55,200 nucleotides of DNA. Source: an uncultured Verrucomicrobiota bacterium (GTDB lineage Bacteria > Verrucomicrobiota > Kiritimatiellia > CAIQIC01 > JAGNIJ01). The position numbers are program-made. Location: contig CAYQYB010000001.1 in the NCBI GenBank assembly GCA_964421535.1, forward strand, positions 1 through 55,200. The letters run 5' to 3'. Shown in pieces: positions 33,001 to 39,000 of this stretch. Position 1 is the first letter of the stretch. Every line of letters starts with the position of its first letter.

Positions 33001-36000
33001 GCCATTGCAGAGGTTCGCCAGGGTGACGCTCCGGCTCGGAGTGGATGCCGCTCCGGAATTGATGTTCATCCAGAGCAGGATCGGCGGCTGCGACACCGTC
33101 ACGTTGACCGTGATGTCGCCCCAGCCGGAGAACTCGGTGTCGCTCGCCAGCAGGCGCAGGACGTACGTGCCGGCGACGGGGAAGCTCGCCGACGTGTTCA
33201 GCGTCTGCGTGTTCGTGAACGTCGCGGTCGCGGGGCCGATGACCTGCCGCCAGCCGCCGTAGAGCGTGTTCGTCGGAATCCCGTCGTCGCTGAGCGTCGC
33301 GTTCAGGCGCGCCGTCGCAGGCAGAACAACCGACGTGTCGCCCGACACGGTCACGCGCGGCGGGTTGTTGACGTACGCCCTCGAGAGCACGAGCCGGATG
33401 TGATTGTAGTTGCCGACGTTCGCGCCCGCGCCCTGGCTGTCCAGAACCAGCGTCAGGATCTGCGCGCCGCGGTACAGCCAGACGTTCGTCACCGTGACGT
33501 CCTGCCAGACCTGCCAGCCGCCGGTGGCGGGAAGGGCCACGGGGCCCGTGACGTTCGCGCCGTCGGCCTCGAGGTGGAACGAAGCGCCGGCCGCCTCGCC
33601 GTTCGCGACGCGGAAGATGACGTTGTACCAGCCCGCCGTGAGCACGTTGACCGTGTAGTCCATCCACTCGCCGGCCTTCGTGTAGCCCACGTTGTAGCCG
33701 CCGTTGGTGTCCGAGCACGCTTCGATATCCACGCCCTCCGTCGTGCGGTACTGCCCGCCCTCGTTGTTCGAAGTCGTGTCGTGGTACGAGACGCCCTCGC
33801 CGCCGGTGTTGAAGTTCTCGAACTCAACCTTGCCGGGAATCATGAACGGAAGCGCGTTGTTGGTCGGGCTCGAGCCGATATACGCCTCCTGCGCGTCGTC
33901 CAGCCGGTCGCCGTCGCGGTCGACGAACAGCAGCGTGCCGTACACGCGGACCTCGCCCGCCGTCCGCCGCAGCTGCAGCGTGCGCACCGCGGGGTTCGCC
34001 TTCAGCGGGATCGTCACGCGCACGATCCGGGTCTGGTTGGTGCCCTTGACCAGGTTGCCGAGGATGTTGTTCGAAATGGAAATGCCGTTGGAGCTCAGCA
34101 GGTCCGCGTACAGCGCGGCGCCCGCGTGATCATAAAGGTAGAGGTCCATCGAGAGGTCGTTGGTCAGGTACGCCCGGTTGAAATCCATCCGCAGGCAGTT
34201 GTTCGTCGCCGTGTTGTTCATGGCCACGAACCAGCCGTTCGACCACAGCCCCGTCCCCACCTTCGATCCCCACAGGCACCACTTCGGGCCCGTGTACCGA
34301 TAGACGTTCCCCGTCGTCAGCTCCGCCGCGCCCCAGTAGAACACCGCGCGGCTCAGCGGGTCGCTGTCCCAGTTGTCCCACCAGCCGTCCATGTCCGTGT
34401 CTTCCGTCCACGGGTCGGTCCACTTCTGCGCCTCGTAGCGGTTCGTCAGCGTGTCGCCGTCGTAGTCCAGCAGGGCGTCCGCCGCGTTGGTCGGGTTGAG
34501 GAAGAAGAAGTTCTCGTAGTTGTTGGACATCCCGTCGCCGTCGGTGTCCTGGGCGAATCCGAGCCCGGGTATTGCGACGAGCGCCGCCGCAATCAGCGCC
34601 GCCTGCACGAAACGAATCCACGCTCCCCGTGTCACTGCTTTCATCTTCTTCCTCCTTCGCGTTCCCGCATTCCTTTAAGGAACCGGCCGCGTCAACCGTG
34701 GGTTGCCTGCCTGTTTGAAACTCGTGGGACCGGCCTTCCGCGCCGCGCCGAAAAGGGAGAGAGGGGAGAGACGCGCGACAGCCGTGGCCGTCCGCTGAAG
34801 AGACAGTTGGTCCTGATCAGAACGCCTGCCGTGAAATGCGCCATAAGAACAGCTTGAACGACCTCCCCGAAACCGCCGGAGCATTATTACACCTAGTTGC
34901 ATACTAGAACCTGTGATCAGAGTCAAGCAGAAACAGGCTGTTTGCAGGCCTTTTCGGCCAATTTCCCATGATTTGGGACAAACGGGGGCGGTGTTCCAAG
35001 CCTTGGAAATCCAGGGCGGGAATCTTCCGAGGCCTGGAAAATCCCCGCCCCGCCCTCCGCACCGTGCAGTCCTAGTTGTTCACCTCGTGGATGATCGCCG
35101 GCACCTGGTCGAAGTACACCTCCGACGCCACGAACGGCGTCGCGATGAACAGGTCGACCGCATTCATCAGGCCGGAGAAGGTGCCCTGGATGACGTTGGC
35201 GGCCTCCGTGTAGTACCCGAACTGGTCGTACTTGCCGCAGAAGATGCCGTTGAGCCAGTCGTGCGGCCCCGAATAAACTTCCTGGATCATGTCCGGCCAG
35301 CTGCCCTTCTGGTAGCCCATGCCGAGCATCTGGCCCGCCTTGTCCTGCGTGCCGCCGAAGATGCTGCCGGGGTCGTCGTTGAGCCCGCCTTTCTCCCAGA
35401 CCCACCGCGCGCCCGCCGCCTTGTCGTTGCTGCCGCGGAATCCGTTGCTGTGCTGGGACGTGTCGATCTTGGTCCCGTCCGGGCGGAAGTTCGACGTGCT
35501 GCGCACGTTCTTCTGCATGGCCGTCGCGGCCGAGTTCATCGCGGCCATGCCCGCGCCGATGGCGGCGCCGCGCAGGCCGCAGTTCAGCGCGTCCTCGACG
35601 GACGCGCCGTAGATCAGCGCATCCACGAAGCCGGTGCCGAACCCGAAGGCCGTGCTTTCGGTGATGTACTTCACGTAGGTGCCCAGGTTGGCCTTGTCCA
35701 TGGTGATGTAGCCCGACGCGTGGAACGCGGCCCCGGCCAGGAAGTTGAAGCCGCCGGCGATCGCGCCCCGCAACGGGTCCGCCCCCTGGATGTGCGCGTT
35801 GAGCGCCCCGGCCGCCATCGCCCCCACGAACCCGCCCACGGCGGTGAACGCCCCCGTGATCGCGCCGCTGAGCATCCCCTGCAGGATGTCGCCGCCGGTG
35901 ATCGCGGCCATGAGCCCGCCGAAGATCGCGCCGCCGACAGCGCCCTGGAACGCCACCCACGCGATCGCCAGCACGAACTGGATGAAGTGCCCCGACGGAT

Positions 36001-39000
36001 CGTTGAACTGGACGGGGTTGTTGAGGGCGTACGTGTAGCGGTTCAGCATCTGCGGGTTGCCGGGCGACTGCACGTACGAGTCCGGCTGGATGAAGCGCCC
36101 GATCGCGGCGTCGTAGTACCGCGCGTTGAAGAAGTAGAGGCCGGTTTCCGCGTCCAGCCGCTGGCCGGTGAACTTGTGCGCGACGTCCACCGAGCCCTCC
36201 TGCCGGCTCATGGAGCCGTACGGCGTGTTCTCGTACAGCGCGACCCGCGTCCCGCCCTGGTCCGTGATCACGTTCGCCGAGCCGAGATGGTCGCTGTGGT
36301 AGTACCGCAGGCTCCCGGTCGACTCGCGCGCCGCGACCCGCTGCCCGCCCGCGAAGACGTACGTCGTGATCTTCCCGTCCGGCGCCACCTCGTAGCCGCG
36401 CCCGATGAAGCGCGTGGTTCCGGCGGCGGTGACGTTCTTCACGCGGCCGCCGTCGCCGTTGTACACGTGCTGCACCGTCTCCGCCTGCGCGCCGGTGATG
36501 GACGGCGTCCACGTCGCGGCCCTCAACACCTGCACGTAGTACGCCTTGCCCGGCACGACCTGGTCCACGACCGACATCGTCTTCGTGACGGCGTCGAAGC
36601 CCTTCACCGTGCCGTAGTCCGTGCCCGACACAAGCGGGCTCAGCCACTGCGACACGGACATCGCACGGCCCGGCGCGGAAAGGAGATTCCAGCCGTTCGT
36701 CAGGGACCGGGCCGGCGGCGTTCCCCCCACGCTGACCAGGTTCATCGTCGCGCCCGCGGCGTTCGTGCAGAATACCCAATAGCCGTCGCCCGGCGTCACG
36801 TTCGTGAACTGGTTGTAGGCCGGGTCGCCGACGTTGCTCTCGAACTTCTGGTCCTGCGGCCGCAGGCGCGTGACCTGGCTGTACGCCGTCCCGAACTGCT
36901 TCAGCGCGTTGGTGACCGTCGTGGCGGCGCCCAGTTTCGGAAGGCCCACGAGGTTCCAGCCCGACTCCAGCCGGAGGGTGTCGGGCGCCGTCGGCGGCAC
37001 CTGCACCTGCACGAGGCGGTTCTCCGCGTCGTACGTCAGGTTCTGCGTGCCCGGCCCCGATCCGCTCCTCGTGGTCATGTTGCCGCCCGCGTCGTACGTG
37101 AACGAGAGGCCGGCCGACGTGGACATGACCGCGTGCGGCTTGCTGTTGACCGCGCCGTAGGCCATCGTGACGCCTTCCTTCGCCGTCATGTTCCCGATCT
37201 GGTCGTAGGCGTACGACAGCGAGCCGTAGCGCGCGCTGTTCGCCGTGAGCAGGCGGTTCAGGGAGTCGTACGTGAAGCTCTGCGTCCCGGAGTTAACCGC
37301 GTCGGTGATGCCGAGCACGTTGCCCGCGTTGTCGAACTGGTACGTGAAGTCCTGGAGCGTGCCGCCCGGCCCCGCGCTGACCAGCCGGTCCAGCCGCCAC
37401 GTGAGCGGGTTGAACGAGTAGTCGCTCGTGACGCCGTTGCCGTACGCGATCTTCGTCAGCTGCCCGGCCGCGTTGTAGTTGATGTTCGAGATGATCGTCT
37501 GCGCGGACTGCCCCGACGGGGTCAGCGTGATCGTCTCGATGCCGCCCTGGAGATTGTACGTGTAGCCGACCGAGTCCCGGTTGGGATACGTCAGCGTCGA
37601 GATGCGCCCGAGCGTGTCGTACGTCGTGCGGTTGGTGTAGGTCGCGCCGTCCATCGTCAACTTCTCGGCCAGCACGCGCCCGATCTTGTCGTACTCGAAG
37701 CCCGCGGTCCCCGTTCCGTCCGTGATCTCCGTGAGACGGCCCTTTGACCAGGACTTGAGCGGATTGTCATATGTATAGACGACCGCCGCCTGGTTCGTGG
37801 GAACGCCGATCCCGCCGGGGATGTCGTAGTCCTTGCGCGTCGCCCGCCCGATGGTGTCGTACGTGTAGCGCAGGCGCACGCCTCTCGCGTCGGTCACCGA
37901 GGAGAGCCCGCCGGCATCGTCGTACACGTACGTGGAAAGGCCCATGTCGGGGTCGGTCATCTGGATCTTGCGTCCGAGGGAATCGTAGACGGTCGTCGTG
38001 ATGTTCCCCTTGGCGTCCGCCAGCCGGGTCATGCGGCCGAGCGAGTCGTACGAGTACGTGGTCGTGGCGTACAGCGTCGGGCTCGGTGCCGTGCCCTCGA
38101 ATTCCTGCACCGTGGCCAACTGGCCGTACGCGTCGCGGAAATGGCGGACCATGTGCCCGTTCGCGTCCACCGAGGTGACGCTCCAGTCGTCGAAGAGGGT
38201 CATGCTCGACGTGCCGTCGGGATGCGTCGTGCCGGTCAGCCGCCCCAGCGCGTCGTAGGCATGCACAGCCGGGGTCGCCAGGTTGGGCACGGACGTGTGC
38301 GGCTGGTACGAGCTCGACGCCGTCGCAAGGTACGGCGCCCACTGCCGCGCCACGAAGCCCCGGTCGTTGAACTCCTGGACGCCCGTCACGACCTGCTGGG
38401 CCGGATTTTCCGCCGGCGACCGGACCTGGATCGGCCGGTTCAGCCCGTCGAAGAAGGTGTGCGTGATCAATTCGTTCGTCGTGCCGTGCTGGCTGCGGAC
38501 GTACTGCGTCGCGCGCGTCGGAACGGTTGAGACGTCGTACACGAACCGCGTCGTCGGCAGGGCCCGCGTGTCGTTCGGGCCAACGACCAGCGAGAGGCGG
38601 CCGAGGGCGTCGTATTCGTTCGTCATGGAAACGCCGGCGGCGTCGGTGGAGGCGATCACCGCGTTGTACCGCGCGTCGTACGACATCGTGCGCGCGTGCC
38701 CCAGCGGGTTCTCGATCTTGACGACGAACGTCCGCGTGGCGGTGTCGAAGGTGTTGCTCACCGAACGGTTCAGCGGATCGATCGCGGACACGACGTTCCC
38801 GTACGCGTCGAACGACGCGCGGCTGGCGATCCACCGGTTCACGGTGCCGGACGCGTCCCGGTCGAGCCAGGACTCCTGGCGGGTCAGGTTGCCCTTCAGC
38901 GGCGCCGCCCCGAGGCTCGCGGAGCCGTCATAGTAGAAGCGCGTCTGTGACACCACGTTGCTCGAGGCGTTGTAGCTGCTCACGAGCGACGCCGCGCTGA

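Follow-up and report, generated by a model that had tools for sequence, protein, structure and literature searches.

The 55,200-nucleotide window analysed here (contig CAYQYB010000001.1 of assembly GCA_964421535.1) comes from an uncultured Verrucomicrobiota bacterium of the Kiritimatiellia and encodes two large paralogous RHS proteins, RHS-1 and RHS-2. Comparison of the C-terminal tail of RHS-2 with its relatives indicates that it ends in a real, uncatalogued polymorphic-toxin domain that is probably membrane-active, the mechanism being our inference. The kind of system is already known, that of polymorphic toxins on RHS or two-partner secretion (TPS) proteins; the domain family itself appears to be new and to span phyla. 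We regard it as very likely that the RHS-2 tail is toxin cargo, and as likely that the target of the family is the envelope or periplasm.

RHS-2 matched the Pfam families RHS_repeat (2e-31), SpvB (1e-24), TcdB_toxin_midN (9e-21) and FG-GAP_3 (1e-16), and its closest sequences in the PDB were TcdB2–TccC3 fusions (E 4e-34), followed by other Rhs shells, YenB/YenC2, SpvB and teneurins. Both RHS-2 and RHS-1 have a predicted Sec-type N-terminal signal peptide, SpvB, an FG-GAP propeller, TcdB_toxin_midN and RHS repeats, and RHS-2 can be classified from its sequence as a fused TcB/TcC-like ‘BC’ cocoon, of the class of TcdB/TcaC-type polymorphic toxins. Over the RHS core it can be aligned with the C-terminal core of TccC3, YenC2 and Tse5, of further solved Rhs proteins and of teneurins; by homology, RHS-2 would be expected to cleave itself and to encapsulate its tail.

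The tail starts directly after NPVQFNDPSGHF, the end of the RHS core common to TccC3, YenC2 and Tse5. The first-pass annotation had delimited the tail as 35072–36001, which runs exactly from the Asp of DPSGHF (residues 2134–2139, 35984–36001) to the stop codon, and all of the tail peptides that it quoted were found in the RHS-2 translation. The 303 residues beyond the DPSG motif consist of two modules, a ~125-residue glycine zipper and then a ~175-residue family domain. The annotation had taken the last ~150 residues as the effector, which needs amending: the conserved toxin unit is the final ~175 residues, and the glycine zipper shared with RHS-1 is a separate module.

In a full-length alignment, RHS-1 and RHS-2 were 49–64% identical over the body, 52% over residues 2140–2210, 38% over 2211–2290 and 23%, which is noise level, over 2291–2442. 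BLASTP of tail against tail gave a single significant segment at the Gly/Ala-rich start, with 33 of 68 residues identical (E 2e-6). The two tails therefore share only the glycine-zipper segment, as had been claimed, with the final 150 residues unrelated (23%), and the paralogues show the exchange of C-termini behind similar bodies that the annotation called a hallmark of polymorphic toxins. In the tail of RHS-1 (21841–22821, minus strand), the shared zipper module is followed by a domain that has a GxSxG elbow (IIAHSQGT); the sole library hint for it was a weak Pfam match to the Tle3 phospholipase (E 0.29), with none in NCBIfam.

Using HMMER against 1.84 billion representatives, 123 cluster representatives (50% identity) matched the tail at E ≤ 1e-3, and the C-terminal sequences inspected among them carry a conserved G.HD motif near the protein end. 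A scan of one genome per prokaryotic species gave 60 loci with the domain, in Pseudomonadota (Gammaproteobacteria, including the sponge symbionts Ca. Oxydemutatoraceae and Porisulfidus, and Beta- and Zetaproteobacteria), Omnitrophota, Thermodesulfobacteriota, Nitrospirota, Acidobacteriota, Verrucomicrobiota, Campylobacterota, Bacteroidota, Nitrospinota and Bacillota. Named hosts are Desulfospira joergensenii and Desulfobulbus elongatus (Thermodesulfobacteriota), Lacunisphaera (Verrucomicrobiota), Sulfurovum (Campylobacterota) and Paludibacter (Bacteroidota), together with one Bacillota metagenome-assembled genome (MAG). No copy of the domain turned up in 40 genomes from the source’s own genus, family and order, a patchy distribution as expected of a mobile cassette.

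Within the source lineage, the tail is a maintained sequence and more than a product of chance. It is kept at 79–95% identity in four orthologues on the same scaffold and, in comparison with the orthologue at locus L062, the ratio of non-synonymous to synonymous substitution rates (dN/dS) was 0.07 in the zipper, 0.35 in the final 150 residues and 0.12–0.16 in most of the body, which indicates purifying selection.

The tail proved as unassignable as the first-pass annotation had judged it, with no Pfam family at E ≤ 1, no NCBIfam family and no PDB sequence at E ≤ 10. When 57 family members were scanned singly against Pfam and NCBIfam, no recurrent family emerged; the domain is absent from Pfam (2025 copy), NCBIfam (June 2026) and the PDB (2026), and a literature search found no paper describing it. 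What had been put forward as a possible new toxin family has thus become an uncatalogued one, present at 60 loci across some dozen phyla.

Alignments of 41 and 57 sequences, including TPS-borne copies, delimit a core of ~150–175 residues with the consensus MR..M..QS...N.SG.S.GF.GDGFKLGGGR ... PLGG.QGG.G..FG..Y..GS..D..VEAYAGPHD.LNS...YD..GN ... N..NV..ATPF.AAS. and the family signature G.R...GG.Q...Y..G...D...E...G.HD. The most conserved polar cluster of the family is the DMIQEVYSGPHD motif, in which E, G, H and D are invariant and D2370 is nearly so. In RHS-2 numbering, the invariant or near-invariant residues are R2332, G2349/G2350, Q2352, Y2363, D2370, E2374, G2378, H2380 and D2381, all of which are kept in the RHS-2 clade. 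The earlier statement that the tail contains no recognisable catalytic motif needs amending in that the domain has a conserved polar signature, formed by R2332, Q2352, Y2363, D2370, E2374, H2380 and D2381.

Long members of the family fall into two classes. The first comprises RHS proteins, mostly with a SpvB/FG-GAP/TcdB_midN front as in RHS-2 and some without SpvB; the second comprises TPS exoproteins with haemagglutinin (Fil_haemagg) repeats, which have an ESPR signal in Variovorax. The first-pass annotation had proposed looking for the tail on other delivery scaffolds, and the domain does indeed also terminate these TPS/filamentous-haemagglutinin (CdiA-like) proteins. TPS-borne copies on Ralstonia solanacearum megaplasmids are ‘orphan’ C-terminal modules behind a large haemagglutinin gene, and one TPS-borne copy lies on an Enterobacter IncFII plasmid. 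The position behind the release motif, the exchange of tails and the unrelated scaffolds all point to the RHS-2 tail being a polymorphic-toxin cassette. On the megaplasmid of R. solanacearum YC40-M (locus L064, 1–8714), a haemagglutinin gene of >3300 residues is followed by fragmentary ‘hemagglutinin-related’ genes, one of which ends in the family domain and precedes an unannotated 133-residue lipoprotein open reading frame (ORF), a layout of orphan toxin/immunity modules.

As candidate immunity genes we took the first co-directional ORF 3′ of the toxin gene at the 60 loci. Roughly 29 of these ORFs have a lipobox and a further ~10 a signal-like N-terminus (~39 of 60 together, at −67 to +150 bp), and most of the exported ones overlap the toxin stop codon by 4 bases or start less than 50 bp away. 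They form at least five mutually unrelated families (I, ~100 residues, 14 loci; II, ~200 residues, 10 loci; III; IV; and V) plus singletons, and no lipoprotein or exported family among them had a Pfam match. The families are clustered on the toxin tree, with 21 label changes compared with 30.7 in shuffles, none of 200 shuffles being as low. The Ralstonia module is followed by an unannotated lipoprotein ORF and the Enterobacter copy by a related 100-residue protein. Small, diverse, exported proteins directly after a polymorphic toxin domain are the expected sign of periplasmic immunity, as in Tae, Tle and colicin-M-type systems. The downstream exported proteins look like candidate periplasmic immunity proteins, and such immunity would mean that the toxin acts in the periplasm or on membranes. 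At three gammaproteobacterial loci (L040, 8400–9700; L041; and L022), tandem lipoprotein genes follow the toxin, family II and then a family-I-like gene.

The same gene pairs could be read without any toxin, the tail being a C-terminal membrane anchor or assembly domain that fixes RHS and TPS proteins to the envelope of the producer, with the lipoproteins as assembly partners. Such a part could also show hydrophobic helices, a place at the very C-terminus and a lipoprotein gene next to it, but the domain follows the RHS self-cleavage motif, at the place that cargo occupies in solved systems, and is exchanged for a lipase-like domain in RHS-1. The Ralstonia ‘orphan’ modules after a full haemagglutinin gene are, moreover, laid out like the toxin cassettes of contact-dependent growth inhibition (CDI), and a spread of the partners over at least five unrelated families is what diversifying immunity proteins would show, and what a conserved assembly factor would not. 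We consider an anchor very improbable.

RHS-2 itself is not followed by an immunity gene. All ORFs of at least 25 residues in the 427-bp spacer 3′ of RHS-2 are Arg-rich or non-hydrophobic, and none is a suitable immunity ORF; profile hidden Markov models built for the five candidate families and for seven singletons had no match in a six-frame translation of the 79%-complete genome. At the L062 orthologue locus, a convergent gene of 1651 residues stands at the immunity position instead. The other loci that lack an immunity gene are mostly in sponge-symbiont genomes, with two of which the RHS-2 sequence groups, on a long branch. Ten of these loci (L002–L008, L011, L032 and L046, in MAGs of Ca. 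Oxydemutatoraceae, Porisulfidus and Poriferihabitaceae) have SpvB/RHS and the tail, and no lipoprotein gene beside them; in both L004 and L008 a secreted ~320-residue protein is encoded ~500 bp downstream, and L005 has a short (53-residue) related ORF in the same place.

Cargo directed at eukaryotes would need no immunity gene, and in the source lineage the tail might be aimed at protist grazers or an animal host, as the cargo of Tc-type BC cocoons is. Consistent with this are the lack of an immunity-like ORF after RHS-2 or its orthologue, the grouping of RHS-2 with two of the immunity-less copies from sponge symbionts (Ca. Oxydemutatoraceae, Porisulfidus, Poriferihabitaceae), the TcdB2–TccC3 fusions as its best solved scaffold relatives and the resemblance of the zipper to the animal protein SGS1. 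Most relatives on the same SpvB/RHS scaffold do, however, have a lipoprotein gene, the tree position of RHS-2 is a long-branch placement and encapsulation alone can account for absent immunity. A TcA-type partner was not detected either: PF18276 and PF03538 (TcA) had no match in the source’s own genome, which is 79% complete, although the control genomes were silent for both families too. We judge a eukaryotic target improbable.

AlphaFold2 (AF2) modelling of the whole 302-residue tail from 23 sequences yielded zipper helices of low confidence and a core at 70–87. For the 178-residue core with 57 sequences, the predicted local distance difference test (pLDDT) was 85.9 and the predicted template modelling score 0.76; the tail matches no well-characterised family, and its core is predicted to be well structured. 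The core model comprises a 36-residue helix, Gly-rich loops with small β-hairpins, a 21-residue helix that bears D2370/E2374/H2380/D2381 and a 38-residue, partly hydrophobic C-terminal helix. Foldseek with this confident model, a search that the first-pass annotation had also proposed, gave no match in the PDB (best E 7.9) or BFVD, and the full-tail model reached only E > 2 in the PDB, its hits being small helical membrane subunits and, over 30 residues, the Gly loops of PfkB kinases. The predicted fold of the core would therefore be new relative to solved structures. The CW_7 cell-wall-binding repeats of Cpl-7 (5i8l), which came up in a PDB profile search at E 0.006 (per-repeat i-E 60–80), were judged spurious, as AF2 places β-hairpins where CW_7 has helices.

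The conserved head may be an enzyme rather than a pore, held by its helices at the periplasmic face of the membrane, that hydrolyses or modifies a phosphate-bearing envelope substrate such as lipid II or undecaprenyl pyrophosphate, a phospholipid, or lipopolysaccharide or peptidoglycan precursors. The invariant R2332, Q2352, Y2363, D2370, E2374, H2380 and D2381 look catalytic, and Gly-rich loops such as GDGFKLGGGR and PLGG.QGG.G typically form phosphate-binding sites; enzymes that act on the envelope typically come with lipoprotein or periplasmic immunity (Tae, Tle and colicin M), and RHS-1 has a GxSxG hydrolase-like domain behind the same zipper. Against an enzyme stand the lack of sequence or fold likeness to hydrolases, with no Foldseek match in the PDB, which holds structures of colicin M, amidases, muramidases and lipases, and a predicted fold dominated by a long helical hairpin; the colicin M motif, DxYD(x5)HR, is not present. 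We take an enzymatic head to be unlikely, though a serious contender.

The zipper bears on the membrane-active reading that we prefer. The first 150 tail residues contain 21% Ala and 19% Gly, and the zipper has 16 overlapping [GAS]xxx[GAS]x3 runs, with a hydropathy of 1.1–1.6 over tail residues 1–60. The TPS-borne copies lack this ~125-residue Gly/Ala-rich region, and in RHS-1 the zipper precedes a different domain, so the zipper is a module of the RHS scaffold class and not part of the conserved toxin unit.

Searched against PDB sequences, residues 1990–2442 had their best matches in the mosquito salivary proteins SGS4 (E 7e-19) and SGS1 (E 3e-18). The phmmer alignment to SGS1 (8fjp_A) covers query positions 43–240, of which 151–240 lie beyond DPSGHF (~90 residues; SGS1 ~2735–2825), and RHS-1 behaves alike. 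In the cryo-electron microscopy structure of SGS1, the aligned residues are the ‘daisy-chained helices’, which follow an aspartyl-protease site and lie buried and partly folded inside the Rhs/YD shell; once released, they are predicted to span the membrane (PMC9935623). Because the part after the motif is of low complexity and has no PDB score alone, we treat this as a similarity with structural precedent, and homology as not proven.

Together, these observations suggest the following sequence of events. After Sec export, the shell would fold around the tail and the RHS aspartyl protease would cut at about residue 2138–2140, leaving the hydrophobic cargo shielded within the shell and the producer protected as well. 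The cargo would then be released on contact with a target, to which the upstream TSP3/Ig partner and a hypervariable propeller region possibly guide it; the glycine-zipper helices would insert in a membrane and hold the conserved head, with its Gly-rich loops and D-x3-E-x3-G-x-H-D helix, at the membrane surface. Acting from the periplasmic side of the envelope, the toxin would most likely permeabilise or depolarise the cytoplasmic membrane. The zippers and their hydropathy, the long helical hairpin of the model and the precedent of SGS1 for shell-stored putative transmembrane helices favour action on the membrane. We hold this account as a whole, from Sec-exported cocoon to permeabilised envelope, to be evenly balanced between right and wrong, and the choice of permeabilisation over enzymatic attack to be tentative, somewhat short of even.

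Several points weigh against it. RHS-2 and its orthologue have no immunity gene, and the proposal of an antibacterial, periplasm-acting toxin is borrowed from relatives of ~30% identity; the RHS-2 clade departs from the family at five near-invariant positions of the core, all in its N-terminal half (R to Q, N to D, G to Q, D to S and L to A), and the RHS-2 sequence is a long branch, at 2.6 substitutions per site. The hydropathy of the zipper helices (about 1.1–1.6) is borderline for transmembrane segments. The invariant polar R, Q, Y, D, E, H and D, with the Gly-rich loops, seem to resemble an active or ligand-binding site more than a simple pore, and every functional claim for the family is computational.

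A bolder combination, which we regard as doubtful, would make the domain a new fold and, at the same time, a new family of toxins that act in the periplasm and span phyla, with five or more families of lipoprotein immunity proteins, each recruited independently. The zipper would be a general membrane-insertion device stored in RHS shells, as inherited by mosquitoes in SGS1, that carries varied payloads (this domain, a lipase-like domain and Tox-SGS), and the Kiritimatiellia and sponge symbionts would run it without immunity. If that were so, either the producer would be fully protected by encapsulation or the weapon would now be directed against eukaryotes.

New antibacterial mechanisms come in large part from polymorphic toxins, and new C-terminal families tend to bring a new target or chemistry to light. 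The present family is widespread, including in the crop pathogen R. solanacearum, and has a confidently predicted fold with no solved relative; its five or more unrelated candidate immunity lipoproteins offer a ready panel of toxin–immunity pairs. Through the link between zipper and SGS1, the exit of hydrophobic cargo from an RHS/YD shell and its entry into a membrane gain a tractable bacterial model, and the copies without an immunity gene prompt the idea that encapsulation may by itself stand in for immunity.

The features of RHS-2 and its surroundings are collected in Table 1.

Table 1 Features of RHS-2, its paralogue and adjoining sequence, by position in the window
Feature	Position	Strand	Description
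RHS-2	35072..42400	minus	2442 aa; from the ORF list and translation
Predicted Sec signal peptide	42293..42400	minus	~residues 1–36: basic n-region, hydrophobic ITWILILSFCISQITI, then AAEA|GG; read from the translation
RHS core / aspartyl autoprotease region	35984..36220	minus	Ends in NRYTYALNNPVQFNDPSGHF; putative shell/cargo self-cleavage boundary
Glycine/alanine-zipper module	35609..35983	minus	Residues 2140–2264; four predicted helices; first ~68 residues common to RHS-1
Conserved C-terminal toxin core	35075..35608	minus	Residues 2265–2442; from 123 representatives, alignments and AF2
Gly-rich loops, GAR (R2332 invariant) to GGTQ (G2349, G2350, Q2352)	35345..35413	minus	Invariant/near-invariant columns
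Motif DMIQEVYSGPHD	35258..35293	minus	D2370, E2374, G2378, H2380, D2381; one predicted helix
Upstream partner of RHS-2 (‘adaptor-B’)	42492..43793	minus	Pfam TSP3_bac + Big_9 (bacterial Ig)
Spacer 3′ of RHS-2	34645..35071		427 bp; no plausible immunity ORF; palindrome-rich element, then promoter region of the next operon
RHS-1 (paralogue of RHS-2)	21841..29163		2440 aa

The upstream partner is probably co-transcribed with RHS-2. RHS-1 is preceded by a secreted multidomain protein (29179–34644, minus strand) with CBM6/35, PPC, LamG, PKD, GH115_C and TSP3 domains, and a secreted multidomain gene also lies directly upstream of the RHS gene at the L062 orthologue locus, which suggests that an RHS gene and its upstream secreted partner form a two-gene unit without TcA. 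Residues 331–900 of RHS-2 (39701–41410), in the β-sandwich/FG-GAP part, are hypervariable, with ~51% identity to the closest orthologue compared with 87–100% elsewhere; the region is nearer to the paralogue RHS-1 (62%) than to the orthologues P0004–P0006 and has a dN/dS of 0.36, which suggests recombination or diversifying selection on a receptor-binding part.

In the gap after the RHS-1 tail, a 162-residue lipoprotein ORF (21245–21733, plus strand; lipobox LLVSGC) lies on the opposite strand. It looks NTF2/SnoaL-like by eye, and could be an unusually oriented immunity gene of RHS-1 or unrelated. Similar GC-rich elements with TTCCAAnnnTTGGAA-type palindromes lie 20–90 nucleotides past the stops of both RHS genes (34985–35060 and 21750–21825), with a local alignment score of 59 over ~80 nucleotides; the window holds five such palindromes, all near gene ends (the others at 14850, 14881 and 50632), and the elements are possibly repetitive extragenic palindromic (REP)-like or terminator elements.

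We compared the domain with several described toxin families. A colicin-M-like identity was ruled out, as the RHS-2 motif is D-x3-E-x-[YF]-x-G-x-H-D and Foldseek gave no match in the PDB. The terminal IHEVNN was considered as a VENN pre-toxin boundary of a truncated toxin and rejected, since Pfam PT-VENN had no match in RHS-2 and one stray match (E 0.89) among the 57 members; the orthologues end in EVNK, EVNQ or EVNR, and distant relatives lack the motif. Ntox22, a toxin of the Ralstonia type V secretion system described as ‘mostly beta; D, D, H, E, H’ (Zhang et al., PMC3482391), fits poorly with a domain that is helical and has a single invariant His; Pfam also gave no match for the TPS members. 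PT4 is an unannotated 149-residue C-terminal domain of a Klebsiella aerogenes ‘adhesin’ (RSW81050.1), reported from Proteobacteria only and with no immunity gene (Nachmias et al., bioRxiv 10.1101/2021.10.19.465003), and is possibly identical with the RHS-2 tail family. Were PT4 the same family, the proposed mechanism would already be experimentally backed, by toxicity in the periplasm and leakage of liposomes, and the novelty would fall.

CDI ionophore toxins pair with integral-membrane immunity proteins. These toxins (CdiA-CT of the Escherichia coli EC93 type; PMC11630599) and other depolarising toxins with glycine zippers (EsxX, CdzC/D) are helical, target membranes and form the C-terminus of TPS or other polymorphic scaffolds, as the RHS-2 family probably does too, its domain likewise occurring on TPS proteins. 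The CDI ionophores are five-helix bundles that require inner-membrane receptor proteins (PMC11630599). The RHS-2 family differs from them in having no VENN boundary or sequence match, and in that its immunity candidates are lipoproteins.

Members of the TcdB/TcaC class have a signal peptide, SpvB, an integrin-like propeller, RHS repeats and a variable C-terminal toxin (Zhang et al. 2012, PMC3482391). RHS-2 shares with these toxins, and with the solved TcdB2–TccC3 cocoon, the domain order, the RHS core with its DPxG boundary, a variable cargo behind it and a different cargo on its paralogue; it departs from them in a cargo that belongs to no Pfam toxin family, a secreted TSP3/Ig/LamG/CBM partner upstream and no immunity gene. 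In SGS1 and SGS4 (8fjp, 9on3; PMC9935623), the RHS core is followed by Gly-rich helices, as in RHS-2 and RHS-1, but SGS1 ends in an arthropod-specific Cys-rich Tox-SGS domain and is an animal protein. Tox-SGS was ruled out as the identity of the core, being Cys-rich and arthropod-only, and the tail having no Pfam match.

Tse5 of Pseudomonas aeruginosa is delivered by a type VI secretion system with PAAR and is not known to have a Sec signal, and its immunity protein is an inner-membrane protein, not a lipoprotein. It is an Rhs protein (PA2684) with a C-terminal glycine-zipper fragment that depolarises target cells by forming pores (PMC10684867). Homology of the tail to Tse5-CT was ruled out, as the Tse5 alignment ends at the DPxG motif of the RHS core and the tail alone had no PDB match at E ≤ 10. 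With an RHS shell around hydrophobic, glycine-zipper-rich cargo that is released by self-cleavage, Tse5 offers the best functional analogy for the RHS-2 model.

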